From contig JBBAAQ010000008.1 of NCBI GenBank assembly GCA_041658255.1, positions 3,442 to 67,441 of the forward strand: a stretch of 64,000 nt of DNA, given 5' to 3'. Below the pieces are notes generated by a model, which was not told where the DNA came from, did not search any database, and saw nothing but the letters and a program-made list of their open reading frames with translations. The DNA is from Candidatus Woesearchaeota archaeon. Lineage in GTDB: Archaea > Nanobdellota > Nanobdellia > Woesearchaeales > UBA9642. Positions within the stretch are counted from its first letter, which is position 1. Each line of letters starts with the position of its first letter. Both the position numbers and the translations under genes were made by a program. Shown here in pieces: positions 3,647 to 55,436 of the stretch.

Positions 3647-3762
3647 GGTGGACAGCGAACCAAGGTTCCCAATCGGAGATCAGTACAACTTGGAACGTGA
3701 GGTTTCTTAACTTCCGAGTTCGAAATGGGATCGGGTGTAACCAACCTGCTATGACCGTCCAG
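3647..3762 (-). rRNA. 5S rRNA (copy 1)
   Basis: The reverse complement reads GGACGGTCATAGCAGGTTGGTTACACCCGATCCCATTTCGAACTCGGAAGTTAAGAAACCTCACG...GGTTCGCTGTCCACC. The conserved 5S loop and helix core is present, and the 5' and 3' ends pair as helix I. Ends are accurate to a few nt. Confidence 0.9.
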
Positions 3763-3820: not shown

Positions 3821-4504
3821 ATGAATACTAAAAACATTTTTATTGTTATTGCCGCATATAATGAGGGCAGAAGCATAAAGCATGTTCTTTCAGGATTAAA
3901 AAAAGCAGGATACAAAAATATTGTGGTTGTTGATGATGGAAGCCGCGACAATACCTTTGATATTATTTCTCAAGAAGGCATATTTGCACTCCGCCACGTG
4001 GTTAATCGTGGACAGGGTGCAGCTTTGAAGACAGGCATAGAATTTGCACTCCGCAATGGCGCAAAATATATTGTCACCTTTGACGCTGACGGGCAGCATC
4101 GTGTCGAGGATTTACCTGCGATGATCCGGCCAGTGATGAATGGTGCGTGTGAGGTAACACTCGGAAGCCGTTTTTTACGGAAAGTAGAAATGCCGTGGTT
4201 TCGCAGATTCACCCTCAAAATTGCGATTCTCGTCATCTGGATATTTTATGGTGTTAAAATGACTGACGCGCATAACGGATTTCGGGTGATGTCGCGAAAA
4301 GCTGCGCAGCAGATTACTATTACTTCTGATCGTATGGAACATGCCTCGCAGATTGTTGAAGAGATCAATAAAAAGAAAATCAGATATAAAGAAATCCCGG
4401 TCGTTATTCAGTATACGCAATATACGCTGCAACATGGTACGGGAAGCTTCTTGCAGGCAATCAAAGTATTTACGCGTATGATTTTGAGAAGGATAATACA
4501 TTAA
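3821..4504 (+). CDS. GT2-family glycosyltransferase (polyprenyl-phosphate sugar synthase-like, soluble)
   Basis: IVIAAYNEGRSI...VVDDGSRDNT...TFDADGQH are GT-A DxD-type motifs. Confidence 0.8.
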   Translation: MNTKNIFIVIAAYNEGRSIKHVLSGLKKAGYKNIVVVDDGSRDNTFDIISQEGIFALRHVVNRGQGAALKTGIEFALRNGAKYIVTFDADGQHRVEDLPAMIRPVMNGACEVTLGSRFLRKVEMPWFRRFTLKIAILVIWIFYGVKMTDAHNGFRVMSRKAAQQITITSDRMEHASQIVEEINKKKIRYKEIPVVIQYTQYTLQHGTGSFLQAIKVFTRMILRRIIH

Positions 4505-7535: not shown

Positions 7536-8629
7536 AACTCTTAATCTTTACAGCATACTATTATCCCCATGCAGGTGGTGTTGAGAATTATGTCCATGAA
7601 TTATTCAAGGGAATGGATGTTACAGTTGTTACCTGCAATACTGAAGGCGCTAAACCATTTGAGCGGATCCATGGATTTAAGGTGTACAGATTTGATTGTT
7701 ATCATCTCATGAATAACACCTATCCGGTATTGAAATATTCTTCTTTGAAAAAAATTGATCAACTTGTTTCTCAGGGGGGATTTGATTATATCGTGACCAA
7801 TACGCGATTCTTTCATACCTCGCTTATCGGTGTTCGTGCAGGTCTGAAGTATCACATCCCTGTCATCCATTTCGAGCATGGGACGCAGCACTCGCCGATA
7901 AAGAATCCGTTATTGCATCTGCTGGGAGTATGGTATGATCATACAATTGGAAGATATATTGTGAAAAATGCTACTACTGCAGTTGGCATCAGTCATGCAT
8001 CTGAGCAGTTCATTAAACATTTGTATAATCGGAAGACATTCTGCGTCTATAATGGCGTCGATACTGCACTCTTTAAGAAAAAAAAGACTGCGCTGAAGAA
8101 AAAATTAGGGATTACGGGTCCGGTCATCATCTTTGTCGGGCGATTAATCTACGCGAAAGGTGTTCAGGATTTACTTGAAGCAGCACGTGGACTTGATATG
8201 ACGGTAATCGTTATCGGTGATGGACCCTACCGCAAGACACTTGAAGAAACGTATCCTTGGGCTAAATTTGTCGGAGCAAAAAACAGTTCTGAAATCGCTG
8301 AGTATTTATCCATTGCAGATATCTTTGTGAATCCCTCCTATGCGGAAGGATTACCGACGTCGGTTTTGGAAGCAGGCAGTTCCGGGGTTTGTTGTATTGC
8401 AACAGATGTCGGAGGGACAAAAGAGATCATCACTCATCTCGTGAATGGATATTTGATCAAACCCCAAGATGCTGAAGGGTTGCGAAAACACATTGTAACA
8501 TTGTTAAATGATAAGAAGTTACGAGACAAATTCAGTAAACGCTTACAATTAAAAATAAGAAAAGAATTCGATTGGAAAGTTGGACAGAAAAAATTAAGGG
8601 AATTGTTATCTCGAAATCGAAATACATAA
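7532..8629 (+). CDS. GT4-family (GT-B fold) glycosyltransferase
   Basis: YAEGLPTSVLEAGSSGVCCIATDVGGTKEII carries the E-x7-E motif region. Confidence 0.8.
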   Translation: MKLLIFTAYYYPHAGGVENYVHELFKGMDVTVVTCNTEGAKPFERIHGFKVYRFDCYHLMNNTYPVLKYSSLKKIDQLVSQGGFDYIVTNTRFFHTSLIGVRAGLKYHIPVIHFEHGTQHSPIKNPLLHLLGVWYDHTIGRYIVKNATTAVGISHASEQFIKHLYNRKTFCVYNGVDTALFKKKKTALKKKLGITGPVIIFVGRLIYAKGVQDLLEAARGLDMTVIVIGDGPYRKTLEETYPWAKFVGAKNSSEIAEYLSIADIFVNPSYAEGLPTSVLEAGSSGVCCIATDVGGTKEIITHLVNGYLIKPQDAEGLRKHIVTLLNDKKLRDKFSKRLQLKIRKEFDWKVGQKKLRELLSRNRNT

Positions 8630-9673: not shown

Positions 9674-10745
9674 GAAAAAAATATTCTTTTTAGGATTGAA
9701 CGGCCGCGGGGGAACGTTGCATTATGCATCAAGTGTCTCTTCTCACATGACCGCATATGCTGAAACGCATTTATTATTGCCGTCTTATAGTGATACGAAG
9801 CTTATTGATAAAAAAGTTAAACTTTTGCGTATTACTGCGCCGCCGAATGCTTTGAAGACAGTGGTGCTAACATTTAATATTTTTGCGCACGTACGGACAA
9901 TACGCGCGATTAATGCGATTGATCCTGATGTGATTGATATTCTGGATATTCATCCCTGGTATATGCTCTGGTGGCCATTTTTGAAGGCGAAAAAGATAGT
10001 TACTATTAATGATCCTGAGCTTCACAGCGGAGAAACAGGAGTAGTTGAAGGATTTATTTTACGCCGGATTACTAAATTTCTTTTAAAACATGCACAGGAG
10101 ATTATTGTTCTTGGCGCAAAACAAAAAGAGACAGTCCGTCGATTAGGATATAAACAACCAGTTATTGTCTCACGTATAGGACATTATGGTTTTTTTGCCA
10201 AGAATGCGGGACACGTGCAGATGGAACCGCGTACTATACTTTTTTTTGGACGGATAAAAGGGTATAAGGGATTAGGGTACTTACTTGATGCATTGATTGG
10301 GATGCCACGGAATTTTAAGCTGGTTATTGCAGGAGATGGTGACTTGAAACCATACGAGGATCAACTCAAAAAACTTAATAGACTCGTGGAGATCCATCAG
10401 GAATACATCCCTGACGAGAAAGTTGCTGAATATTTTAATCGTTCAGCATTTATTGTGATGCCTTACACTGATGCGACACAGACAGGTGTTGTACAGATTG
10501 CTTATTCATTCTCTAAACCAGTCATTGCGACTAATGTGGGGAGTTTACCTGAAGTTGTTATAAACGGGAAAACTGGGATTGTTGTTGAACCAAGAGATGT
10601 TGTGCAGTTACGTAAAGCGATAACGCGATTGCTTGATAATCCTTCTTTAACGAAGACCTATGGTGCAAATGGTCATCAATTCATGAAAAAAGAATTAGAC
10701 TGGAAAAAGATTGTGAAGAAGCTGTATTCAAATATTTTTCATTGA
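9666..10745 (+). CDS. GT4-family glycosyltransferase
   Basis: FFGRIKGYKGLGYLLDAL...TQTGVVQIAYSFSKPVIATNVGSLPEVV. It overlaps the GT9 gene by 8 nt. Confidence 0.75.
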   Translation: MAKKKIFFLGLNGRGGTLHYASSVSSHMTAYAETHLLLPSYSDTKLIDKKVKLLRITAPPNALKTVVLTFNIFAHVRTIRAINAIDPDVIDILDIHPWYMLWWPFLKAKKIVTINDPELHSGETGVVEGFILRRITKFLLKHAQEIIVLGAKQKETVRRLGYKQPVIVSRIGHYGFFAKNAGHVQMEPRTILFFGRIKGYKGLGYLLDALIGMPRNFKLVIAGDGDLKPYEDQLKKLNRLVEIHQEYIPDEKVAEYFNRSAFIVMPYTDATQTGVVQIAYSFSKPVIATNVGSLPEVVINGKTGIVVEPRDVVQLRKAITRLLDNPSLTKTYGANGHQFMKKELDWKKIVKKLYSNIFH

Positions 10746-10768
10746 TCCTCTACTTTCAGAACCAAACT

Positions 10769-11473
10769 CTATTTAACCCTGTTCATTATTTTTTTCCTGG
10801 AGACTGACTTTCTTGCATGGTATATTGTGCAATAAGTCAGTGGAACAATATTCATAGGTATTTGTATCCGCGTAAAAGGAATTTGAATATAACTGCCTTC
10901 TATATTAAAAGGTTCGAACCCATACACATTAAGAAGTGTTATCATGTTGGTTGTCGGGAATTCATGAACGTGATCGCCTTTAATTCTGTAATTAAGATTA
11001 TACCCTTTTACCCAATGCCAGAAATGGATAGCGACTTCAATTGGAGACTCGGGATTCGGAGTAGATAATGCTAATACTCCTCCTGGTTTTAATAGCCTAT
11101 ACACCTCTTTCATAAATGAATCAAGATCCGGCAAATGTTCAATAGTCTCGCCGGCAATTATACAATCAAAAGATTTATCTTTAAAGGGATATGGATAAGG
11201 CTTATCCATGTCTATGGTAAATATTTTTGAATAGTTCTTAGGTTTATTAGATGGAACAAAAATATCCAAGCCATACGCATTTTTTATAAATGGATTAGGG
11301 ATAGCTGCATATCCTATATCCAAAACTTTCTCTCCTCCCCTCAAAAATCGAGCAAGTCGCTTCAATCGATACCTGATTCCCCAATTGTAAAAAATATTAT
11401 ACTCTTTTATGACTTCATAGTTTTTTTTTGTAAACTTATCTGTTCTTCTCTTAGTAGTTGTCATTTCGTTCAC
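10769..11473 (-). CDS. Class I SAM-dependent methyltransferase
   Basis: VLDIGYA...FDCIIAGETIEHLPD...LKPGGVLALSTPN. The first ATG is at 11464. Confidence 0.7.
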   Translation of the reverse strand: MNEMTTTKRRTDKFTKKNYEVIKEYNIFYNWGIRYRLKRLARFLRGGEKVLDIGYAAIPNPFIKNAYGLDIFVPSNKPKNYSKIFTIDMDKPYPYPFKDKSFDCIIAGETIEHLPDLDSFMKEVYRLLKPGGVLALSTPNPESPIEVAIHFWHWVKGYNLNYRIKGDHVHEFPTTNMITLLNVYGFEPFNIEGSYIQIPFTRIQIPMNIVPLTYCTIYHARKSVSRKKIMNRVK

Positions 11474-11574
11474 TCATATTTTTTTAAACATAACTCCTCA
11501 ATCAAAGCAAATCAATGATACACCTGTATGGGAACAGATCAAAATTGAGATATCTCATTTTTGTAGGATGAAGT

Positions 11575-12993
11575 CTATTTAAATTTATTCATTATTTTTT
11601 TCAAATATTTGTTTCTTAAGAAAGAATTCTGGACAAATTCCATCACAAATATGTGACCTGCTACTTTGGCAAATGACCCTAGATATGCGTATCTCTTAGC
11701 AATTCTTTTTTTTATTATCGTATTGCTCACTTTTTTTGCAAGCTTAAATGCTTTGACCCGGTCGTCATAACCCATTTCCGGTGTTATGAAGCACGGGATA
11801 TTTTCTAGGGGCGAGGATCTATTGAGATAGTTTTCATAAGGCTGCAAAAGAAAATTATTTTCAGAAAGATACTTGTAAAGCGGAGTCTCAGGAAATGGCA
11901 TTAAATTATAAAAATTAGCATATCCTATCGGATATTTTAAGGCTAATTTAAACGAATTTTCCAGATCCTTTAATGTTTCACCAGGGTATCCAATGACATA
12001 AAAAAGTCCAACAATATACCCTAATTCTACAGCATTTTTAATCGCTTCTTCAACACATTCTATTGATTCTGCTTTTCCCATATTCTTTAACACATGATTA
12101 TTTGCCGATTCAACACCGAAGCAGATGCTGTAAAATCCGACTTCTTTCATTCTTTTTAACAAGTTATAATCTGCCTTATCAGCCCTAATCCCATTCCCGA
12201 GGATCATTCTTAATTTCAGATTTCTTTTTTCTATCTCATCACAGATTTCAATGACCCTTTCTTTATAGAATGAAAAATTATCATCAACAAAGCCAAAATT
12301 GTTAATCCCTTGTTTGGACCAGTATTCAAGTTCATCCACAACATTTTTAGCGCTCCTTACTCTAAAACGTCGTCCAATCGATTTTTCAACAGGACAAAAG
12401 CCACAACCATAAGGACATCCCCGTGAAGATACGACGTGAATCAAAAATTCCGGATATTTTGAAAGCTCAAATTTTTCATATGTTGGAAATGGGATGTTAT
12501 CAAGGTCTGTGATGAACCCTCTATCTCCAGTATACACAACATTATTTTTATTATGATATAACAAACCTTTGACGTCTGCTATGTTTTCTGCTTTGCATAG
12601 ATCTACTATTGTCTGATCGCCCTCGAGCACCACACCGTAATCTATCTGTGGGCATTCTTTTAGGACCTTTTCTCTGAATAATGAAATATGTCCTCCGCCT
12701 GCAACTATCTTTATTTCAGGAAATCTCTCTTTGAGTGTTTTTATGATGCGATACGCATAATTGTACCTTAAAGAGAGGATCTGAAGACCTATTAAATCCG
12801 GCTTGTAATCTTCAATTTTCTTAATAACATCCTTGAGTTCATATCCTAAATTCATATCTATGACATCGTATTCGATATGATGTTGCCTAAGCGCTTCTGC
12901 TATGTATCCGAGCCCGGCATAGATCAGCGGAGCATATTTAACCTTCTCATACTGGGCATTCAATAGTAACACTTTATTGAACCGGTTTACCAT
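11575..12993 (-). CDS. B12-binding-domain radical SAM protein
   Basis: An N-terminal Rossmann-like B12-binding region (DLIGLQILS...IVAGGGH) is followed by SRGCPYGCGFCPV (CxxxCxxC). The ATG at 12993 is preferred over the TTG at 13005. Confidence 0.8.
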   Translation of the reverse strand: MVNRFNKVLLLNAQYEKVKYAPLIYAGLGYIAEALRQHHIEYDVIDMNLGYELKDVIKKIEDYKPDLIGLQILSLRYNYAYRIIKTLKERFPEIKIVAGGGHISLFREKVLKECPQIDYGVVLEGDQTIVDLCKAENIADVKGLLYHNKNNVVYTGDRGFITDLDNIPFPTYEKFELSKYPEFLIHVVSSRGCPYGCGFCPVEKSIGRRFRVRSAKNVVDELEYWSKQGINNFGFVDDNFSFYKERVIEICDEIEKRNLKLRMILGNGIRADKADYNLLKRMKEVGFYSICFGVESANNHVLKNMGKAESIECVEEAIKNAVELGYIVGLFYVIGYPGETLKDLENSFKLALKYPIGYANFYNLMPFPETPLYKYLSENNFLLQPYENYLNRSSPLENIPCFITPEMGYDDRVKAFKLAKKVSNTIIKKRIAKRYAYLGSFAKVAGHIFVMEFVQNSFLRNKYLKKIMNKFK

Positions 12994-13103
12994 GTTATTT
13001 TTCAATTGGTGGTCTTATATAAATTTTTCTAAAAAATAAAATTTTTTATTGTTCGGTAAAAAATAACGCTATTACCTTTTCTCATATTAAAATAATAAAA
13101 ATA

Positions 13104-13217
13104 TGGACAGCGAATCAAGGTTCCCAAACACAAGTGTAGTACAACTTGAAACGTGAGGTTGCTTGACTTCTAAGTTCGAGATGGGGCCAGTGTGACCGAC
13201 CTGCTATAGCAATCCAA
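13104..13217 (-). rRNA. 5S rRNA (copy 2, divergent)
   Basis: The reverse complement reads TTGGATTGCTATAGCAGGTCGGTCACACTGGCCCCATCTCGAACTTAGAAGTCAAGCAACCTCACG...GATTCGCTGTCCAT. By eye it is about three-quarters identical to copy 1, and differences fall in paired positions. Confidence 0.8.
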
Positions 13218-40929: not shown

Positions 40930-41075
40930 AAGATGAGCAGATGCAAAGAACTATTCGAGAAAAACGGACAGAATTTTCACTACGTTCAAATTTCCTGCAG
41001 GGAAATTGCAAATGGTACGTTTTTCAATCAAATAGCATATAAATCTGCGAATGGCGACTACGAGCGAAGTGAGAA
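40930..41075 (+). repeat. Repeat-family member, related to the nrdD gap sequence; contains a 52-codon ORF at 40933-41091
   Basis: It shares agaaaaacggacag and attgcaaRtggtacgtttttcaWtcaaa with the reverse complement of 49140-49254. Confidence 0.65.
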
Positions 41076-41087
41076 ATTCTACAAAGT

Positions 41088-41453
41088 CTAAGGAAAGGGT
41101 ATTTCTGGATAGTTATCTTCACGTGTGATCTGTCCATCCCTTTCTTCTGCACTGAGAATGATATACTCCTCGCGTTCCATCCCCATATATTGTCCTGGAA
41201 TGTGGAGGAGTTTACGTGTTCCTGATTCTTCATATGCAGAACCTTTTGAGTATTCAATGACTGCAGTAAATGTGTTGTTGTTTACTAATCCTGTAATAAT
41301 TATTTTTTGTTCAGAACCTGTCACGGTTTTTGAATACGTCGGGGTATGATAATAGATGTGCAGCCTATCTTTACGTAATCTTTCTGTTGTCTGAGGATAG
41401 TTTTTCGCGAATATGCTATCAATACTTGATTGTTCATCAATTGTTGGTGCCAT
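41088..41453 (-). CDS. Hypothetical protein
   Basis: 121-aa ORF with no recognisable motif. Confidence 0.35.
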   Translation of the reverse strand: MAPTIDEQSSIDSIFAKNYPQTTERLRKDRLHIYYHTPTYSKTVTGSEQKIIITGLVNNNTFTAVIEYSKGSAYEESGTRKLLHIPGQYMGMEREEYIILSAEERDGQITREDNYPEIPFP

Positions 41454-47019: not shown

Positions 47020-47739
47020 TTATCTTACTTCCACAATCCCCACTTTCCCTTCAAATATTTTTTTAAAGTGATGTAATTCTTTTTCAGAATAGGATTTCTC
47101 ATCCTTAAATGTATTATCGATCAGATCTTTTTCTGTCTTGAATTGTTGCAACACATATTTTTTTGCTCCAGTAATCCACGATGCGATCGCTTCAAGATCT
47201 TTTGGCGAATGTAATTTGGGAAGAACTGTTGTTCGGAATTCATAATCGATTAATCCATCGCGTCCTGCATTGATGATGAGTCGGACGCTTTTTTTGATCT
47301 GTTCGATACTTACTTTTGCGCATACAGTCTCTTCATAGCGTTCTTGACTATTTTTGATGTCCATTGCGATATAATCGACGAGTTTTTCATCAATAGCTTT
47401 TTGGATAATCAGAGGAAATGATCCGTTGGTATCAAGTTTGACAAGCAATTTACGTCTCTTAATCTCGCGCATAAAGTCGAGAATTCCCGGATGCATAAGC
47501 GGCTCTCCGCCAAGCAACACGATTCCATCAATCCATTTACGTTTCTTATCGATGAATGCAAAGAATTCAACAGGCGTGATATCCGGAAATTCCTCCTCAT
47601 TGAAGATGAGTTCTGGATTATGACAATACGGACAACGAAAATTGCATCGACTAAAGAATACGACTGTTGAAATCTTATCCGGATAATCGATGAGTGAAGA
47701 TTTCACAATCCCTTTGATGTGGATATCCATCTCTTTCAT
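47020..47739 (-). CDS. nrdG: Anaerobic ribonucleotide reductase activating radical SAM protein
   Basis: FFSRCNFRCPYCHNPE (CxxxCxxC) and LLGGEPL, in an RNR operon context. Confidence 0.75.
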   Translation of the reverse strand: MKEMDIHIKGIVKSSLIDYPDKISTVVFFSRCNFRCPYCHNPELIFNEEEFPDITPVEFFAFIDKKRKWIDGIVLLGGEPLMHPGILDFMREIKRRKLLVKLDTNGSFPLIIQKAIDEKLVDYIAMDIKNSQERYEETVCAKVSIEQIKKSVRLIINAGRDGLIDYEFRTTVLPKLHSPKDLEAIASWITGAKKYVLQQFKTEKDLIDNTFKDEKSYSEKELHHFKKIFEGKVGIVEVR

Positions 47740-48390
47740 TTACATCTGCTCCAATAGTTTTGGAAGTTCAGTAAGTGAAGTAATCCTGTTCGGGTAATCA
47801 GAATTCTTATTTTTCCGGTCAATAAGGATTCCTTTGATGCCAAAGTCCTCTGCACTTTGCACATCTAAACGTAACGAATCTCCGACCATAATGACTTCAT
47901 CTTTAGAGACACTGAGTTTTTCGAGTGCGATTTCATAGATACGCGGGTCGGGTTTTTGCATACCGACTTCGTATGAGAGAATAATTTCATCAACGAGTTC
48001 ATAGAGGGGAAATTTCTCAAATATCTGTTTCATTGATATATTAGTGGTATTACTCAAGATTGCAATCTTATATCTCTTTTTTAATTCTTGCAATACGGCA
48101 ATCGTTTCCGGAAATGCATATTTTCTTACTGTTCCATTCTTTTTAAAAATTTCACAGAGTTCATGAATAAGTCCTTCGTTCACATCAACTCCGATATTTT
48201 TCGTAAATTCATGCATGGTCTGTTCAATATGTGTAATGGGGTGTGCCATGAATGTTTCACTAAATACAGTATAGAATTCTGGATTGCGATATGTTCTTCC
48301 TAATTTTGTCGCGAATTCTTCAAAGGGGAGTGTTGTTGCATCTGACTCGAATAATGTCCCCCATAAATCGAAAATAATCGCTTTAATCAT
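47740..48390 (-). CDS. HAD-superfamily hydrolase
   Basis: IIFDLWGTLF (motif I) and MVGDSLRLDV (motif IV). Confidence 0.75.
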   Translation of the reverse strand: MIKAIIFDLWGTLFESDATTLPFEEFATKLGRTYRNPEFYTVFSETFMAHPITHIEQTMHEFTKNIGVDVNEGLIHELCEIFKKNGTVRKYAFPETIAVLQELKKRYKIAILSNTTNISMKQIFEKFPLYELVDEIILSYEVGMQKPDPRIYEIALEKLSVSKDEVIMVGDSLRLDVQSAEDFGIKGILIDRKNKNSDYPNRITSLTELPKLLEQM

Positions 48391-48638
48391 TTGAGAATTG
48401 CATTCATCTCTTCAAGTGTTGGCGAAACGCCATTCCATTCCTTAACGACATTCTTTTCTTCATCAAGAACTACGACCGAAGGAGTCGCCATGACACCATA
48501 ATCAAGTGCTTCAGCAAGTCCGTCTGCAGTTTGGATATCATGATATTCAACCATCGTCTTATGCTCGACTTGTGAAATCACCTTCTTTGCTGCTGGGCAC
48601 TTCGGACAGCTTGGTTGGATAAACACTTTAATGATCAT
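48387..48638 (-). CDS. Thioredoxin/glutaredoxin-like small redox protein
   Basis: IKVFIQPSCPKCPAAKKV (CxxC) and ATPSVVV. An ATGA overlap links it to the HAD gene. Confidence 0.7.
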   Translation of the reverse strand: MIIKVFIQPSCPKCPAAKKVISQVEHKTMVEYHDIQTADGLAEALDYGVMATPSVVVLDEEKNVVKEWNGVSPTLEEMNAILK

Positions 48639-48842
48639 TGCATTCACCTATTTTGAATCTAATCTTCATCAATAACCCCTGCCATCCTTATAATCATATA
48701 CTATCTAAAAATATATTCTCATCATTAAAAAAATACTGTGACTATAGTAAATCGCTTTAATTTTCGGATAACAAAAAACGCTTTGCGTTTTAGGTTTTCG
48801 GGAATCTTTGATTTCCTAAATATCTAAAAGCGATTTACTATC

Positions 48843-48898: not shown

Positions 48899-49066
48899 TT
48901 ATTTAGGGCGTCCGCAATCGTCCTCAACTTCATAATTTCCTTTCTGTCGGCTTTTGAATTCTGCTTTCTTTGATTTATTCCAATTATTGATTCGGGAAAA
49001 GTACCCGACTACGCGGCTGACACCATACACATTCTTGCTTCCACACTGCTTACATTTTGCTCCCAT
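48899..49066 (-). CDS. nrdD: Separate 55-aa ORF encoding the NrdD second CxxC pair and glycyl-radical motif
   Basis: Not in the track because it is under 60 aa. Manual translation gives MGAKCKQCGSKNVYGVSRVVGYFSRINNWNKSKKAEFKSRQKGNYEVEDDCGRPK*. RVVGYF...NWNK.K..EF..R is the conserved class III RNR glycyl-radical C-terminus. Confidence 0.75.
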   Translation of the reverse strand: MGAKCKQCGSKNVYGVSRVVGYFSRINNWNKSKKAEFKSRQKGNYEVEDDCGRPK

Positions 49067-49139
49067 GACTGCACCTCATCATTTGAATATGACTTACTGT
49101 TACCATCGCTCGCATTCTTATTTTAATATTGTTGCTGTC

Positions 49140-49254
49140 GTTCGTGTTTGCGATTACTGTCGCTCGCATTTGATACATGTTTTTGAATGAAAAACGTACC
49201 ACTTGCAATCCTGTCCGTTTTTCTTGATTGTGCGTTTGTTGATGCTCGCATCTT
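49140..49254 (-). repeat. Repeat-family member inside the nrdD gap; contains a 42-codon ORF at 49123-49251
   Basis: See the entry for 40930-41075. There is an 8-bp hairpin stem, gaaaaacg/cgtttttc. Confidence 0.6.
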
Positions 49255-49287
49255 GACAGTAATCGTACAGTACACTACTAATTTTTC

Positions 49288-51771
49288 TTAATCCCGATCG
49301 TACCCTCTGGTTACTGAATGGCAATCCTCGCATACAGTAAATTCTGGACTAATCGTTATTTGTGCTGAAACAGTATTTGTCCAAGTCTTCTTTACAAGTT
49401 CATAAATCGCTTTTGGGCTTGGGGTTTTTTCACCTGCAAATACGTGGGTGATTGCTCCTGCTTCAATGATGGGATTGAACTTGGCCTGCTTCTCAATGCG
49501 TTCCATAATATCTACTGGCGCGTCTGCTGCTAAGTGGATGCTATTGGTATAATAGACTTCTCCTTTACTGATGTCTCCGCGTACAAAGTCGCGGCTTTCA
49601 GGATATTCCTGCAAATCAACTTTTGCAAATCGTAGGGATGTTGATTCTCCGGGTGTTTCTTCAAGGACGAGTTTGAGGCTGTGCTGTTCTTCAAGTTGTT
49701 TAGCTTTAAGATACATGCTTGATGCAATCTTTAATCCTAATCGATATGCCTGGTCTGATTCATGAAGTGCCTTACCTGTTAAATATTTAACACATTCATT
49801 AAGTCCAATCATTCCAATAATATAACTTGCATCATTCAAATCAACATAAGGTCTTCCATCATGCGCTTTCATCCCAATCTGCCATAGCGGAGTTCCTGGT
49901 TGGTTACTGATTTTTGTGATGAATGCCTTCTTTTGGAGATGTGCTTTCATGGCAAGATCCATTGTTTTTTTGATTTCTTCAATTGTTCCTTCAACAGTTT
50001 TTCCACGGTATGCTGCCTGTGGAAGATTAATTGTTACATTCTGGAATCCGCAGAAACGTAAACTTTCAGGATGCAATAAGAGATAATTATCTGTTATTTT
50101 AGTTCTTAACCTACAACATGCAGAAAGTGTTGCCTTATCGCGATCAAACACAAAATACGGGCTCCCATTGTCTGAAGCGATCTTACACGCATATTCTAAT
50201 AATTCGCGTTGGCTCAAATCATCAAAAGAATCTTGATCAACATGAAGGTCCATCTTTGGGAATGCAAACATTTTACCCTCACTATCCCCCTTATGCCATA
50301 TTTCCATTAATGCCCGGCAAAATTCTTGCGCCTCTTTTTTGAAATCTTGATACACTAAAATTTTTCCCTCTTTAGGATTGAGCTGTTTAAGGGTATCATC
50401 AGGATTACGGGGGATTTCATCAACATAATCAATTGTTCCATTGACTCGTTTAATCATATATTTGCCGCCAGGACCGATTGCAGGAATATTTTGCATATAT
50501 TCGGGAATGCCCATGTGGATGTTGAAATCAATGAAGAGTGTCTGCCCCCCGCGACTGAACGCATTCTGCGAGCAACTAAAGATTAAGAATTGTGCTTCTT
50601 GTTTAATCTGTTTCTCACTTAATCCAACAAGAAGTGGTGCGTAAAAAATGTTGAGATATGCAAGACCTAAAGCGCCCGCATAGTATGCTTGTATTGATGC
50701 AAGAAATGTATTCAAATGACTTGTTAATGTATCTGCATGTTTGGCTGGTGTTGAACCGCTATTAAGATTGTTCAGTTTGAGACCATATTTTTTAATATAT
50801 TCAGGTGAATGTGCTGAGCAGTAGACGCGGATAATATGCCCTAAATCATGGAGGTGTAGCGCTGCTTTGAGATGCGCTTCAGCAACATCTTTACTAAAAA
50901 CTTCCTTGAGTGCATATTGTTTAAGTACTAATTCAGCTATTGCAAGATTTACCGCTTCAGGATTATTATTGACAACATTACTATCCTCATTATTTTTAGA
51001 AAAGATGACTTGGTTAAGGTTATACACACTGATGCCCATGATTTCCTGTTTTTCAAGTTTTTTTGTGTATCCGCGTTCAAAGAGTTCATTATTTACAAGT
51101 TCGCGAAGTAGTGATACTGAGATTGTCTTGACACCTGATTTCATGACCTTTTTTTCAATACATGATGCGATTTGTTCTGATTCCTCCTTTTCGAGTTTGA
51201 TCTCTTTTATGAGTGCATCGACAATGCGCTGGCGATTCCACTCATTAATCGTTCCTTTGACTGGTGTTGATACGAGAAGATTAAAATCAGTAGTGTCCTG
51301 ACCGCTTCCTTGTTGGTCATGAGATACAATTCTAAGATTTTTGAGTTCATGCTCAAACTCATCTAGATCCTTAAACTGGCGATAGACTGATGCAAACCTA
51401 ATATATGCAATCTCATCAAGTGCCTTAAGATGTTTCATGATAATATCGCCAATAATCGTACTCTTTATTTCATTAGTCTCTTGATTGTAGACATCTGCTT
51501 CAACTTCAGAAACAACTGCTTCAATGCGTTGAGAACTAATAGGTCGTTTCTCGCATGCTTTAACGATGCCTTTAAGAATCTTATCGCGGGTGAATGGTTC
51601 ACGTCTCCCGTCTTTTTTAATGACTTGGACTTCAACCATCTCAATAGTCTCATAAGTAGTGAATCGTTTACCACATTTGAGACATTCTCTTCTACGCCTA
51701 TTCGTATCATCATCAGAGACACGTTTATCAACAACTTTAATTTCAGAACTTGAACAAAATGGGCATTTCAT
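49288..51771 (-). CDS. nrdD: NrdR-NrdD fusion: a complete NrdR (Zn ribbon plus ATP-cone) fused to a class III ribonucleotide reductase body that lacks the glycyl-radical C-terminus
   Basis: The N-terminus reads MKCPFCSSSEIKVVDKRVSDDDTNRRRRECLKCGKRFTTYE...KRPISSQRIEAVV...LDEIAYIRFASVYRQFKDLDEF, collinear with bacterial NrdR. The NrdD body follows. The ORF ends in FTVCEDCHSVTRGYDRD*, after only the first CxxC pair. Confidence 0.85.
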   Translation of the reverse strand: MKCPFCSSSEIKVVDKRVSDDDTNRRRRECLKCGKRFTTYETIEMVEVQVIKKDGRREPFTRDKILKGIVKACEKRPISSQRIEAVVSEVEADVYNQETNEIKSTIIGDIIMKHLKALDEIAYIRFASVYRQFKDLDEFEHELKNLRIVSHDQQGSGQDTTDFNLLVSTPVKGTINEWNRQRIVDALIKEIKLEKEESEQIASCIEKKVMKSGVKTISVSLLRELVNNELFERGYTKKLEKQEIMGISVYNLNQVIFSKNNEDSNVVNNNPEAVNLAIAELVLKQYALKEVFSKDVAEAHLKAALHLHDLGHIIRVYCSAHSPEYIKKYGLKLNNLNSGSTPAKHADTLTSHLNTFLASIQAYYAGALGLAYLNIFYAPLLVGLSEKQIKQEAQFLIFSCSQNAFSRGGQTLFIDFNIHMGIPEYMQNIPAIGPGGKYMIKRVNGTIDYVDEIPRNPDDTLKQLNPKEGKILVYQDFKKEAQEFCRALMEIWHKGDSEGKMFAFPKMDLHVDQDSFDDLSQRELLEYACKIASDNGSPYFVFDRDKATLSACCRLRTKITDNYLLLHPESLRFCGFQNVTINLPQAAYRGKTVEGTIEEIKKTMDLAMKAHLQKKAFITKISNQPGTPLWQIGMKAHDGRPYVDLNDASYIIGMIGLNECVKYLTGKALHESDQAYRLGLKIASSMYLKAKQLEEQHSLKLVLEETPGESTSLRFAKVDLQEYPESRDFVRGDISKGEVYYTNSIHLAADAPVDIMERIEKQAKFNPIIEAGAITHVFAGEKTPSPKAIYELVKKTWTNTVSAQITISPEFTVCEDCHSVTRGYDRD

Positions 51772-51791
51772 GTTTACCAAACTCCGATAAC

Positions 51792-51807
51792 GCAGTCTAT
51801 ATTGTGA
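51792..51807 (-). promoter_or_regulatory. NrdR-box-like site (11/16 match)
   Basis: In gene orientation it reads TCACAATATAGACTGC, against the consensus ACACAATATATTGTGT. It lies 21-36 bp upstream of the nrdD ATG. Confidence 0.4.
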
Positions 51808-51856
51808 ATTTTAATTGTTTTGGGCCCAATATGTAGTATTCTTCTAAAATTTTTAG

Positions 51857-51872
51857 GCACCAGATATTGTGT
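51857..51872 (-). promoter_or_regulatory. NrdR-box-like site (13/16 match)
   Basis: In gene orientation it reads ACACAATATCTGGTGC. Its centre is 65 bp from the proximal box, about twice the spacing I recall for tandem NrdR boxes (~31-32 bp). Confidence 0.5.
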
Positions 51873-51906: not shown

Positions 51907-51928
51907 GTTATATATAAATATTGTTGTA
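51907..51928. promoter_or_regulatory. 22-bp motif GTTATATATAAATATTGTTGTA shared by both RNR upstream regions
   Basis: It is identical at 51907-51928 and 55415-55436. It contains a TATA-like core and an ACAACAATAT half-site in gene orientation. Confidence 0.5.
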
Positions 51929-52175: not shown

Positions 52176-55100
52176 TTATAATCCGCACCCACCATTTTTA
52201 TTTCCACAACCAGGACAGGAATAACAATTAGGTGTTGTTCGATCCATTGCGCTACCGCATTCATTACACATGACTCCGCGATCATTGGTTAATTCAGATT
52301 TTTTGAATCCATTTGATTTTTTTCCGTTAGTGCCGTTAGTGTTTTCTTTAGTACCTGTAACAAATCCTCCAAAAATCGAGTCATTGATGACTTCTTCAAA
52401 ATTCCAGTCATTAATATGCCGCCGAGCATAGGTCTGAATTGCGCCATTCTTTGTTCCGCGTAGTTTGTTAATATCCACTGTTGAAGGATCATTAGCAATG
52501 TCAACATCACCAAGATATTCAAGTCGTAAGAGTTTTCCTGCAAAATCAAGCGGTGAAAGCGCGGTTTTAATATAGGAGTGGTCAAAGACTAATCCTTTTG
52601 GTTCGAATTCATCACCAATCCATCCTTTTAAGACATCTTCAAGTTCAACGCCACGTTTCAAAGATGCTGATGCTTGAATCCCTGCCTGTCGAAGCATTGC
52701 TCCTAATGTAGATCCCCCTTTATAGGATTCAATAACAATCTGACCAATACGTCCGTCTGGATATTCGCCTGTGATAAAATGAAATTTAGTGCCTCCGATT
52801 TTAACTTCATATTCATGCCCGGGTCTGTCTGGTGGGAGATCCTCTTTTTCTCCGCGCTTTAACGCAATCATCCTCTTATCTCCAAAGCTGAGTGCGCTAA
52901 TAGGTTTGCTATCATCACGAAAGATTGCAATTGCCTTTAATCCCAGTTTATAACTAAGAAGATATGCATCATAGATATTTTTAACTGTAGCTGATTTTGG
53001 AAAATTACTCGTTTTCGAAATAGCACCCGAGATAAACGGTTGTGCTGCAGCAAGCATACGTACATGACCCTCAAACGGCATTGCTCCTAAACCATCTACA
53101 TTACCAGTAGCTGTCTCGAAAATTTTGTAATGTTCTGGATTCATGTGTGGAGCGCCTACAACAGTGCTGCGTGCAACTCTGGGTCGGATCTCTTCAGTAA
53201 TATATTTATTGATCTCACTAATTTGCGCTTCAGTATATCTCAGATTATGCAATGCATTTGGTACCTCATTATTTACCAGTGTTAATGTCCCTCCTCCTGC
53301 AAGGTTTTTAAAAATACTTAGTGAGTAGGATGGCTCAATACCTGTAGTATCGCAACCCATCAAGAAGGATATTGTACCTGTCGGGGCAATGACACTTGCT
53401 TGACCATTCCGGAATCCATATCTTCGACCGTTATTTACTACCTTATTCCAGGTGTGGTATACTTCGTCCTTTAATGCAGGATCAATATGTTCCCACTGAA
53501 TTTCATCAAGATTTTTCTGATGTTTTTTAATAACTTCACGCATAGGTTTACGATTAAATTCATAATGGGTGAATGTTCCACGTGCTTTTGCTAATTCAGT
53601 TGATTCTTCATATACTGCGCCTGTCATGAGCGCAGTAACTGCGCCTGCAAATGCGCGCCCTTCATCAGAATCATACGCAACTCCTTTACGCATCAATAGT
53701 GCGCCGATATTTGCATAGCCGAGTCCAACATTACGGAATTCAGGACTAATTGCTGCAATATCTTTAACAGGGTATGATGATACATCATTGATAATATCTA
53801 ATGCAATCCCTGTTATCTTCGATCCGTGCTTAAAACTTTGATAATCGAAGTTTCCATTTTGATCGCTGAAACGAAGAAGATTGAGTGATGCAAGATTACA
53901 TGCAGTATCATCAATGAACATATATTCAGAGCAGGGATTACTGGAATTAATGTTTCCAGAATTCTTTGCAGTATGCATTTCCTGAGTTTTTGATTCATAT
54001 TGGACTCCAGGATCGCCGATGCGCCAGGTCCCGAATGCAATCTCTTGAAGCATGCGACGTGCAGCTATCTTTCCTACAACTTTTCCATCGGTTACTTGAT
54101 GGAATTCGACTATTCCGTCTTTTTCTACCTGATCAAAAAAATAGTCATCGAGCCGTATGGAAAGATTAGTGTTTTGGAGTGCGACTGTAGTGTACGCTTC
54201 ACCATCCATACCGCCACTATATCCATTTTGCATAAGGATGAGTGCTTTATGGTCTTCGCGTACTTTTCGGCGGATGAATTCTAAACTGTCAGGATGATGA
54301 TACCTTGTGGTGGTCATGCGCGCAGCGCGTCTAGTCTTCCCGCCGGATTTTATTGTTCCCGCAGCATGATCATAGCTTACAAGAAAACTCATACTACCCG
54401 AAGATACTCCGCCACTTGATAAGGGTTCGCCCTCTCCGCGCAAACGATCAATACCTTGACCAACGCCTGATCCTGACTTAAAAATCATAGCCTCATTCTT
54501 ATGATGTTCAGCAATACTTTCAATATCATCATGAGGGCCAGTGATAAAACAGGCATGACTTTGTGGTTTTATCCATGAACCTTTAGTGATTATTTGAACT
54601 TCACCTGTTTGTGAATCACGCCAGTACTGTTTTCCCCCGCTTCCTGCAATCCCATATTCATTATAGATTCCTGCATTGAATTGGACTGGCGAGTTGAATG
54701 CCATCTTTCGATTAATTTGAAGCCATTTGAGTTCGTCTTTGAATGCTTCTTTGTCTGTAGAAGTCTTGAAATATCCTAATTTTTCTCCCTCATCTGCAAT
54801 AAAATTTGTGACTCGGGTGATGAGATGAGTAATGGATTGTTCGTAAGGTTTTCCAATCTTTTCTTGTATCTTTTCTTGCCACTCAGGTTTTCGAGGTTTA
54901 AACAGATAACGATGTGCGACAATCGTGACATCATTATCACCCCAACTTTCTGGAAAGAGTGCATCATCCATATGAAATACTGTTCTTCCTTTATTATCAG
55001 TAATTGTGACTGCACGTTCAGTATAAGGTCCAACTGTGTCAAATGGATCAATTTTTCCATCAGTAAAATACCGTTTGATCTCTATACCTTCACCTTTTTT

Positions 55101-55337
55101 CGATTCATGATATACCCGCCCGATATCTAATCGATCAAGATATTGCGCGTTATTAAATTGGTGGACAGTAATATTCTTTTTATTTATTGCATTAACTAAT
55201 TTTTCTAATGGGAGATTCTTATCTTTTTGACTTTTGATGAGGTCATATGCTGCTTCAAGCGGGATATGTCGTTCTTTATCGTACGTATCTAAGCTTGTTT
55301 TAGAATAAATTGCGCTTGTTTTATTAGCTTTCATCAT
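52176..55337 (-). CDS. nrdJ: Class II (adenosylcobalamin-dependent) ribonucleotide reductase
   Basis: The active-site region reads SSNPCSEYMFIDDTACNLASLNL. There is a C-terminal Cys-rich tail, CNECGSAMDRTTPNCYSCPGCGNKNGGCG. The ATG at 55337 is preferred over the GTG at 55358. Confidence 0.85.
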   Translation of the reverse strand: MMKANKTSAIYSKTSLDTYDKERHIPLEAAYDLIKSQKDKNLPLEKLVNAINKKNITVHQFNNAQYLDRLDIGRVYHESKKGEGIEIKRYFTDGKIDPFDTVGPYTERAVTITDNKGRTVFHMDDALFPESWGDNDVTIVAHRYLFKPRKPEWQEKIQEKIGKPYEQSITHLITRVTNFIADEGEKLGYFKTSTDKEAFKDELKWLQINRKMAFNSPVQFNAGIYNEYGIAGSGGKQYWRDSQTGEVQIITKGSWIKPQSHACFITGPHDDIESIAEHHKNEAMIFKSGSGVGQGIDRLRGEGEPLSSGGVSSGSMSFLVSYDHAAGTIKSGGKTRRAARMTTTRYHHPDSLEFIRRKVREDHKALILMQNGYSGGMDGEAYTTVALQNTNLSIRLDDYFFDQVEKDGIVEFHQVTDGKVVGKIAARRMLQEIAFGTWRIGDPGVQYESKTQEMHTAKNSGNINSSNPCSEYMFIDDTACNLASLNLLRFSDQNGNFDYQSFKHGSKITGIALDIINDVSSYPVKDIAAISPEFRNVGLGYANIGALLMRKGVAYDSDEGRAFAGAVTALMTGAVYEESTELAKARGTFTHYEFNRKPMREVIKKHQKNLDEIQWEHIDPALKDEVYHTWNKVVNNGRRYGFRNGQASVIAPTGTISFLMGCDTTGIEPSYSLSIFKNLAGGGTLTLVNNEVPNALHNLRYTEAQISEINKYITEEIRPRVARSTVVGAPHMNPEHYKIFETATGNVDGLGAMPFEGHVRMLAAAQPFISGAISKTSNFPKSATVKNIYDAYLLSYKLGLKAIAIFRDDSKPISALSFGDKRMIALKRGEKEDLPPDRPGHEYEVKIGGTKFHFITGEYPDGRIGQIVIESYKGGSTLGAMLRQAGIQASASLKRGVELEDVLKGWIGDEFEPKGLVFDHSYIKTALSPLDFAGKLLRLEYLGDVDIANDPSTVDINKLRGTKNGAIQTYARRHINDWNFEEVINDSIFGGFVTGTKENTNGTNGKKSNGFKKSELTNDRGVMCNECGSAMDRTTPNCYSCPGCGNKNGGCGL

Positions 55338-55354
55338 GTACACCCAACCCAAAA

Positions 55355-55370
55355 ACACAATATATTGTGT
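55355..55370. promoter_or_regulatory. Perfect 16-bp NrdR-box palindrome ACACAATATATTGTGT
   Basis: Read directly. It lies 18 bp upstream of the class II RNR ATG and just downstream of an AATATTTAAAAG TATA-like element. Confidence 0.7.
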
Positions 55371-55414
55371 GTGTCTTTTAAATATTACACCAAATACGGG
55401 ATTGTTGCTCTTAG

Positions 55415-55436
55415 GTTATATATAAATATTGTTGTA
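55415..55436. promoter_or_regulatory. Second copy of the shared 22-bp RNR upstream motif
   Basis: It is identical to 51907-51928. Confidence 0.5.

Follow-up and report, generated by a model that had tools for sequence, protein, structure and literature searches.

Can a ribonucleotide reductase (RNR) carry its own repressor? The question is raised by a locus of a Candidatus Woesearchaeota archaeon on contig JBBAAQ010000008.1, within a stretch of 64,000 nucleotides (nt) that we refer to, at its whole length, as the window. On its minus strand, positions 49288-51780 form one unbroken open reading frame (ORF) in the ORF listing, and translation from the ATG at 51771 gives a protein of 827 residues, counted from that ATG throughout. 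A preliminary description of this DNA had recognized here a full-length NrdR repressor fused in frame to the N terminus of the class III RNR NrdD, and had offered two alternatives for the regulator part, namely that the enzyme is its own repressor or that the NrdR domain was co-opted as an extra allosteric cone. From the sequence evidence set out below, the gene is a natural fusion of the NrdR repressor with NrdD, and we consider it probable that its product works as a bifunctional enzyme-repressor.

Domain Architecture of the NrdR-NrdD Protein

Profile searches with Pfam and NCBIfam, which the preliminary description had called for, found both the NrdR and the NrdD domains. The order along the predicted chain is Zn ribbon, NrdR ATP-cone, a flexible tether of ~25 residues, a degenerate second cone and the NrdD barrel, encoded as follows.

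49288-51771, minus strand: nrdR-nrdD fusion ORF, 827 residues, with NrdR module, second cone and NrdD catalytic body, without a glycyl-radical domain (ORF listing, Pfam, NCBIfam)
51649-51771, minus strand: NrdR Zn ribbon, residues 1-41 (Pfam PF22811, Zn_ribbon_NrdR, E 3.4e-16)
51367-51627, minus strand: NrdR-type ATP-cone, residues 49-135 (Pfam ATP-cone, PF03477, E 9.6e-31, the better of two ATP-cone matches)
51247-51330, minus strand: fusion junction and flexible tether, residues 148-175 (AlphaFold2 pLDDT below 50 for 148-162 and 165-175)
51052-51258, minus strand: second, degenerate ATP-cone, inherited from NrdD, residues 172-240 (Pfam ATP-cone, E 3.1e-8)
49309-50988, minus strand: NrdD catalytic barrel, residues 262-821 (PF13597, NRDD, positions 1-517 of 562, E 1.6e-105)

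The in-frame fusion proposed earlier holds good, in that the product of a single ORF scores above the cutoffs of both NCBIfam equivalog models, with 188.4 bits for NrdR (TIGR00244, cutoff 124.65, positions 1-147 of 147 matched) and 330 bits for NrdD (TIGR02487, cutoff 326). Collinearity of the first ~150 residues with bacterial NrdR was borne out by the solved NrdR chains 9fxk, 9fvr, 9gex, 9fzf and 7p37, which align end to end with residues 1-149 at E values of 1e-32 to 1e-40. The four Zn-ribbon cysteines said to be retained are all there as two CxxC pairs (C3, C6, C30 and C33), as are the motifs quoted in the preliminary description, together with D15, R17, R25-R28 and R36. Within the 827 residues, the K-K-D-G-R-R nucleotide motif occurs in the NrdR-type cone only. 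A cone derived from NrdD had also been expected after a short linker; it was found as the weak but real ATP-cone match at residues 172-240 ('EWNRQRIVDALIKE'), in which the K-R-D-G nucleotide motif is absent on direct reading. Homology to free NrdR stops near residue 150, and homology to unfused NrdD restarts near residue ~160. In an AlphaFold2 model made with 32 homologues, the Zn ribbon has three strands and the cone is helical; a low-confidence segment at 148-175 is followed by a small helical second domain and a confidently modeled barrel.

By every sequence criterion of the family (Zn ribbon, DNA-contact residues, full-length model match and tandem boxes) the N-terminal module is a member of NrdR, except that it is not a free-standing protein of ~140-220 residues. 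The remainder of the ORF is, by its profile matches, a class III RNR with the finger loop A-C-C-R at 551-554 (C552, C553), and its glycyl-radical domain is on another chain. On this point the preliminary description needed amendment: its assignment of the second part to NrdD stands for the catalytic body and falls for a complete NrdD, as the ORF ends without the glycyl-radical domain, which had been overlooked.

Origin of the Fusion and Replacement of the First Cone

Loci related to the one in the window were collected in a GTDB scan with one genome per species, and each of the 80 best loci was tested for continuity of the reading frame. Among these, nrdR is separate and directly upstream of nrdD in all bacterial relatives and in one Woesearchaeota subclade. 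The bacterial relatives, with 51-57% identity, belong to Planctomycetota (including anammox genera), Omnitrophota, Clostridia, Elusimicrobia, Nitrospirota and others. Neighbor-joining gave broadly congruent trees for the NrdR part and the NrdD core; NrdR and NrdD have accordingly shared one history, at first in an operon and, in archaea, as one fused gene.

The unfused homologue P0110 has two cones ahead of its barrel, a canonical first one with the K-R-D-G motif and a degenerate second one, and it is with the first that the NrdR cone of the window protein is collinear. Comparison of the sequences thus indicates that the fusion arose from an nrdR-nrdD operon like those of the bacterial sister clade, and that it kept NrdR whole and deleted the first ATP-cone of NrdD, the NrdR cone taking its place. 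With the nucleotide motif missing from the second cone, ATP and dATP have no plausible binding site in the enzyme other than the NrdR cone.

Conservation of the DNA-contact Residues

In the structure of Streptomyces coelicolor NrdR bound to DNA, contacts to the phosphate backbone come from R12, R26-29 and R37, and those to the bases from D15 and R17; the R17A substitution abolishes DNA binding (PMC9110341). The equivalent residues in the window protein are K12, D15, R17, R25-28 and R36. Across the 29 fused proteins, C3, C6, C30, C33, V13, R17, R26-28 and R36 are present without exception, and D15 is present in 27. The same pattern is seen in 46 free bacterial NrdRs, and the signature residues of the cone are equally kept. 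Judged by these residues, DNA binding by the fused NrdR module looks retained.

NrdR Boxes at the Two Ribonucleotide Reductase Promoters

Candidate operator and promoter elements were located upstream of the fusion gene and of its neighbor nrdJ.

51857-51872, minus strand: NrdR box 1 upstream of nrdR-nrdD, ACACAATATCTGGTGC (19.6 bits with a matrix trained on other archaea)
51824-51839, minus strand: NrdR box 2, ATACTACATATTGGGC (33 base pairs (bp) from box 1; 11.3 bits)
51792-51807, minus strand: NrdR box 3, TCACAATATAGACTGC, of which only the left half is good (32 bp from box 2)
51907-51927, minus strand: TATA-like promoter element of nrdR-nrdD, ACAACAATATTTATATATAAC (identical 21-nt copy at the nrdJ promoter, none expected by chance)
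52176-55337, minus strand: nrdJ, class II RNR, second predicted NrdR target (Pfam PF02867, PF08471)
55355-55370, minus strand: NrdR box upstream of nrdJ, ACACAATATATTGTGT (0 mismatches to the bacterial NrdR-box consensus; 25.7 bits, top match of the window)
55387-55402, minus strand: weak in-phase box, ATCCCGTATTTGGTGT, 32 bp upstream of the perfect nrdJ box (9 of 16 positions match; weak evidence by itself)
55415-55435, minus strand: TATA-like promoter element of nrdJ (sequence identity with the copy at 51907-51927)

The preliminary description had placed NrdR boxes upstream of both RNR genes and had singled out the palindrome at 55355-55370, and both observations were upheld. That palindrome matches the consensus perfectly, phased boxes precede nrdR-nrdD, and ranks 1, 2 and 3 in a matrix scan of the 64-kilobase (kb) window all fall in the two RNR promoters, with a weight matrix built from 24 sites of other archaeal loci only. 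The spacings of 33 and 32 bp correspond to the three helical turns typical of NrdR boxes. Taking all loci together, 16-mers with no more than 2 mismatches from the consensus number 37 in 24.9 kb upstream of nrdR and nrdR-nrdD starts, against 0 in 597 kb elsewhere, and a box with no more than 3 mismatches lies upstream of 22 of the 29 fused genes, where the background rate would give ~0.5%. Other possible targets at 23.5-25 kb of the window were rejected, being low-scoring matches inside the ORF of a 968-residue membrane protein that look like chance.

At both promoters the boxes lie 35-55 nt downstream of the TATA-like element. This 21-nt sequence, ACAACAATATTTATATATAAC, is conserved in relatives (L002, 7880-7900; L003; L088, 2684-2704) and is probably a TFIIB recognition element (BRE)/TATA promoter element. 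The start of nrdJ in the ORF list (GTG 55358) falls inside the perfect NrdR box, and ATG 55337 is the more likely start. At its other end, the NrdJ protein has a cysteine-rich zinc-finger tail (CNECGS…CPGCGNKNGGCG).

Proposed Function of the Fused Protein

With these residues and boxes in view, we predict that the fused module binds the NrdR boxes, and think it fairly likely that it does so. As to the self-repressor and the co-opted allosteric cone, both are probably true; the NrdR cone sits exactly where the functional first cone of the unfused homologues sits. In the mechanism that we propose, the Zn ribbon would recognize the tandem boxes that follow the TATA elements at nrdJ and nrdR-nrdD, the flexible tether of ~25 residues giving the NrdR module its reach to the DNA. 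A rise in dATP would cause ATP/dATP-loaded cones and Zn ribbons to pair NrdD dimers into a tetramer, which would bring four Zn ribbons onto two adjacent boxes and so block transcription of nrdJ and nrdR-nrdD. The same loaded cone, as the sole functional cone of the enzyme, would act as the overall activity switch of NrdD. Both parts of the protein have relatives that behave in this manner, as free NrdR forms tetramers (PMC9110341) and dATP drives tetramer formation through the cone of Prevotella copri NrdD (PMC11226230).

Several points weigh against this proposal. DNA binding and repression by the fused protein are deduced from its sequence, and the allosteric role of the NrdR cone on NrdD is read from its position. 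A tetramer-forming repressor that is tethered to a dimeric enzyme of ~90 kDa may be hindered in forming the kinked-DNA complex of free NrdR. In 7 of the 29 fused loci there is no box with 3 or fewer mismatches, and in the free-NrdR relative L088 the sole box upstream of nrdJ has 4. Among the free-NrdR relatives L086-L088, boxes with 3 or fewer mismatches were not found, the upstream regions of L086 and L087 lying off the contig. Bacterial NrdR boxes overlap the -10/-35 elements; the boxes described here follow the TATA element and fall within what is presumed to be the 5' leader, and the mode of repression in an archaeon is conjecture.

A free NrdR elsewhere in the genome could also serve the boxes. 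This underlies a different explanation, which we regard as unlikely but serious, in which the NrdR module is purely an allosteric or oligomerization domain that does not bind DNA and the boxes are read by such a separate protein. Since the NrdR cone fills the place of the lost cone 1 of NrdD and the other cone is without the nucleotide motif, an allosteric role is needed anyway. Free NrdRs of 65-76% identity do occur in related Woesearchaeota: contigs without nrdD carry an nrdR of 147-150 residues (L086, 2597-3049; L088, 6001-6444), 65-73% identical to the window module, and our search for a second NrdR covered the 64-kb window and 5 kb around the fused loci only. Within that range none was found, neither in the window, searched to E = 10, nor beside any fused locus. 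The free NrdRs examined, moreover, come from loci that have no nrdD and occupy the same syntenic slot (in L088, nrdR lies directly after nrdJ, where the window has the fusion, and is followed by the same genes); they replace the fusion and do not accompany it. That NrdR persists where nrdD is absent suggests that the regulator part has a function of its own. Nor would oligomerization alone explain why the Zn ribbon, D15, R17 and the RRRR patch are as invariant in the 29 fused proteins as in free repressors. On balance, a fused module that both senses nucleotides for the enzyme and binds the boxes remains the reading that we prefer.

Gene Calls and Names of the Fused Proteins

The source annotation of the contig calls nrdD from an ATT codon at residue 149 (51325-51327; P0002, 680 residues) and omits the NrdR module, and the homologues P0017-P0019 are likewise called without the Zn ribbon. 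With starts placed past the Zn ribbon in this way, automatic annotation under-reports the fusion. The names given by NCBI to the fused proteins are inconsistent, being either 'transcriptional regulator NrdR' or 'anaerobic ribonucleoside-triphosphate reductase.' A protein-database query with the NrdR domain alone returned free NrdRs and fragments, and fused proteins were not listed.

The annotated start at residue 149, together with the low-confidence and probably disordered linker that AlphaFold2 predicts at the junction, could be taken to mean that the gene yields a free NrdR as well or instead, through proteolysis of the linker or separate translation of NrdD, in which case regulator and enzyme would be separate molecules. 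We consider this improbable. The ATT codon of P0002 has no ribosome-binding site before it and looks like a gene-caller artefact, so we rejected it as an internal start, and at the NrdR/NrdD junction the 32 aligned homologues have no conserved stop or start.

Distribution of the Fusion

The preliminary description had taken the architecture to be unusual, while granting that the claim would fall if the form proved common and annotated. Database searches revealed a common, clade-wide form that Pfam and NCBIfam models detect, so the claim of rarity fails. A public protein collection yielded 2657 homologues of the full-length protein, of which the best 120 clusters at 90% identity were examined. 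Zn ribbon and NrdD barrel are on one chain in 98 of these clusters; another 12 have the NrdR-cone signature without the Zn ribbon and look like N-terminally truncated gene calls, and the NrdR module is wholly absent from 10. In the GTDB scan, the in-frame NrdR fusion was found in 27 of the 80 best species loci, to which the window and four looked-up contigs (L001-L005) are to be added. The hosts are Woesearchaeota, Nanohaloarchaeota, Micrarchaeota, Aenigmatarchaeota, Parvarchaeota, Heimdallarchaeota and Bathyarchaeia, and the nearest relatives of the window, at 76-85% identity, are metagenome-assembled genomes labelled Woesearchaeota or 'uncultured Methanosarcinales.' The window itself belongs to a low-GC archaeon, with DPANN genomes of the Woesearchaeota type closest to it. 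When the library was clustered at 50% identity, a single representative (P0037) spanned both the NrdR module and the second cone, which makes all the fusions one family and gives no count of them. By these counts, the fusion is the norm in a large archaeal clade of NrdD with members in DPANN, Asgard and Bathyarchaeia. We also observed that three homologues of 1323-1383 residues (P0066, P0075 and P0080) are fused NrdR-NrdD proteins with an intein and a LAGLIDADG endonuclease (PF14528, PF14890) inside the NrdD part.

That an assembly or sequencing artefact merged adjacent nrdR and nrdD genes, which do stand side by side as separate genes in bacteria and in one Woesearchaeota subclade, has a negligible probability. 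The in-frame junction recurs in ~100 clusters, drawn from assemblies of NCBI, JGI, ENA and Logan, and in the genomes that represent 27 species from several phyla, which likewise excludes the stop or start hidden by a sequencing error that the preliminary description had allowed for. Cone 1 of the unfused NrdDs is, moreover, missing from the fused proteins, a loss that a missed stop codon could not produce.

A Separate Glycyl-radical Subunit

The part of NrdD that is missing from the fusion protein is encoded downstream.

49321-49332, minus strand: first CxxC pair (C814, C817), last conserved element of the body (invariant in 32 homologues)
49067-49287, minus strand: spacer of 221 nt from the nrdD body to the glycyl-radical ORF (not an intron, not a structured RNA)
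49072-49077, minus strand: ribosome-binding site GAGGTG, 5 nt upstream of the ATG of the glycyl-radical ORF (same motif 5-9 nt before the ATG in ~30 related loci)
48899-49066, minus strand: 55-residue glycyl-radical subunit, a separate gene (PF13597 positions 523-561 of 562; TIGR02487 positions 541-580 of 581)

In the fusion protein the NRDD match reaches only profile position 517 of 562. Its last residues are '...TVCEDCHSVTRGYDRD', and the chain breaks off between the two CxxC pairs that make up the C-terminal metal site. The 55-residue ORF (KCKQCGS...SRVVGYFSRINNWN...) has the second CxxC pair (C5, C8) and the radical glycine G21 in the motif RVVGY, and the nrdD body and this ORF cover complementary parts of the NrdD profile. 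The body stops at the same C-terminal position in 94 of the 120 best clusters of homologues. A separate frame encodes the glycyl-radical domain in 34 of 36 archaeal-clade GTDB loci and also in L001, L002, L004 and L005; in the related loci the separate gene encodes 50-90 residues (for example, L004 8478-8710 and L005 8499-8700), and in ~30 of the archaeal-clade loci a ribosome-binding site resembling GAGGTG or GGAGG stands 5-9 nt before its ATG. Free-standing glycyl-radical homologues in the protein collection number 44, with lengths of 41-84 residues and the names 'ribonucleoside-triphosphate reductase' or 'hypothetical protein,' and NCBIfam has no dedicated model for such small proteins. The nrdD of the bacterial relatives encodes body and glycyl-radical domain as one continuous chain. 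Split bodies have tails that are homologous to the linker found in continuous forms, which identifies the break as a gene fission and not an insertion.

Given that the partner body has no glycyl-radical domain of its own, the 55-residue protein is, on this comparison of sequences, an obligatory subunit and not a spare part. Both CxxC pairs, that of the body and that of the small chain, are conserved, and NrdD of phage T4 has a Zn(Cys)4 site (Logan et al. 2003, as cited in PMC9669993). By homology, the two chains probably share a Zn(Cys)4 metal site, to which each gives two cysteines and which docks the small subunit; it counts against this that the two-chain Zn bridge is drawn from homology to T4 NrdD only. 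The small subunit would complete the catalytic body in trans.

The nrdD gene of phage T4 is interrupted by a self-splicing intron. An intron of this kind in the 221-nt spacer was considered and rejected, there being no Rfam match at either the gathering or a permissive threshold and a fold z-score of -0.93. It is also contradicted by the spacers of the relatives, which are AT-rich and unconserved and range from -17 to ~+120 nt, several overlapping the stop codon of the body, and by the presence of a second ORF with a conserved GAGGTG/GGAGG and ATG.

Several further observations concern the spacer and the break. The spacer at 49067-49287 is unusually long and has three ATGCGAGC motifs. A piece of ~45 nt from it (…GAAAAACGGACAG…ATTGCAAGTGGTACGTTTTTCATTCAAA) recurs in a 52-residue ORF at 40933-41091 (at 40958-41035) and, weakly, in L002 at 10504-10611. 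L002, which is the closest relative (85% identity), has ORFs of 84, 149 and 100 residues between the nrdD body and the glycyl-radical gene (10685-11724); these gave no Pfam or PHROG match, and the insert may be a mobile cassette. In the bacterial loci L067 (~4009-4140) and L076 (~8067-8177), the glycyl-radical segment lies ~180-200 nt past the end of the nrdD ORF with no CxxCG before it, a displacement that could reflect a frameshift, an insertion or another kind of split.

Neighboring Genes and Other Features of the Window

Two genes further downstream complete what looks like a class III RNR cluster.

48387-48647, minus strand: thioredoxin/glutaredoxin-like protein (Pfam Thioredoxin_3; syntenic in L002, L004 and L005)
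47020-47739, minus strand: radical S-adenosylmethionine activase, NrdG-like (Pfam Radical_SAM, Fer4_12; syntenic in relatives)

The NrdD2-like, thioredoxin-dependent subtype of class III RNR has a double-cysteine finger loop without a leading Met and a redoxin partner (PMC9669993). The sequence of the window agrees with this subtype in its A-C-C-R loop and in the thioredoxin-like gene nearby, and the thioredoxin-like protein is the probable reductant of the CC-finger-loop NrdD. In the proposed scheme, NrdG would activate the 55-residue subunit and the thioredoxin-like neighbor would supply the reducing electrons. Between the redoxin and activase genes lies a gene for a HAD-family hydrolase (47740-48390, minus strand), syntenic in L002 and absent in L004 and L005, which might be a nucleotidase tied to dNTP pools. 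Elsewhere in the window there are two isolated 5S rRNA genes 9.5 kb apart, at 3647-3762 and 13102-13217, both on the minus strand, the second being diverged (49.5 versus 74.1 bits). ARAGORN found no tRNA genes across the 64 kb.

Significance

A wider picture of the locus, which we offer tentatively, is that of a class III RNR that may act as its own transcription factor. One cone would sense ATP/dATP, and high dATP would both stop the enzyme and clamp the boxes, the fusion being the only NrdR in these archaea. The exchangeable 55-residue radical subunit would be held by the two-chain metal site, so that oxygen-damaged radical sites could be replaced without remaking the 95-kDa body.

NrdR is treated as a bacterial regulator and has been proposed as an antibacterial target in recent papers. 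The present analysis finds it widespread in DPANN, Heimdallarchaeota and Bathyarchaeia, with canonical boxes at TATA-type promoters and joined to one of its target enzymes. Should DNA binding be a property of the fusion, this RNR would be the first to regulate its own transcription, and it would provide natural tests of one ATP-cone driving both allosteric inhibition and DNA binding and of a bacterial-type repressor at work with the transcription machinery of archaea. Purified free NrdR is notorious for its instability, and the natural fusion may be easier to handle in structural work. The split subunit carries the idea of an autonomous glycyl radical protein from pyruvate formate-lyase to ribonucleotide reductase. 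With large ORFs annotated as complete NrdD or NrdR and small ones as hypothetical, the present annotations can mislead metabolic reconstructions. We found no description of an NrdR-NrdD fusion or of a split class III RNR in the literature, with incomplete search coverage, and two large RNR phylogeny studies mention neither. The fusion is real and widespread, and seems to be undescribed.

Comparison with Known Systems

Like free bacterial NrdR (S. coelicolor 7P37/7P3F; 9FXK, 9FVR, 9GEX and 9FZF), the module described here has the Zn ribbon and ATP-cone at full length, with ~45-50% identity, and the same DNA-contact residues, and, as with free NrdR, the RNR genes are preceded by tandem palindromic boxes of 16 bp, spaced at ~32 bp. 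Unlike free bacterial NrdR, which has ~150-200 residues, it forms the N terminus of its own target enzyme; its host is an archaeon with a TATA-type promoter, and its boxes lie downstream of the TATA element and not over -10/-35. In archaea NrdR has been called rare or absent (PMC9110341; bioRxiv 10.1101/2025.03.28.645925). The nrdR-nrdD operons of bacteria and of the Woesearchaeota subclade offer the closest NrdD and NrdR sequences, the same gene order and boxes upstream. They differ in that the genes are separate and NrdD has its own canonical first cone and, in the bacteria, a continuous glycyl-radical domain.

PutA, BirA and NadR are trigger enzymes, in which an enzyme and a DNA-binding domain that controls the genes of its own pathway in response to a pathway metabolite are combined, and their bifunctionality is proven. 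The fusion protein likewise joins enzyme and DNA-binding domain in one polypeptide, which is a resemblance and not a relationship. It is not homologous to them, its bifunctionality is deduced, and in its case the ATP-cone sensor would serve the control of both catalysis and DNA binding. Within class III RNR, the N-terminal ATP-cone of P. copri NrdD binds ATP and dATP, and dATP leads to tetramers with a disordered glycyl-radical domain (PMC11226230). Unlike that cone, the one described here is of the NrdR type, which in free NrdR binds ATP and dATP together, and it has a Zn ribbon in front.

For the split enzyme there are two partial parallels: GrcA/YfiD is a small glycyl-radical spare part of pyruvate formate-lyase, and NrdJa/NrdJb is a class II RNR encoded in two consecutive genes. 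The 55-residue protein resembles GrcA in being a small, separately encoded glycyl-radical-loop protein, and the locus resembles NrdJa/NrdJb in having an RNR in two genes. According to a 2026 review of glycyl-radical enzymes, formate lyases are the only enzymes for which spare-part proteins are known (PMC13450708). Unlike GrcA/YfiD, the small protein of the window is the only glycyl-radical domain that its enzyme has, and the break that set it apart falls between the two CxxC pairs.

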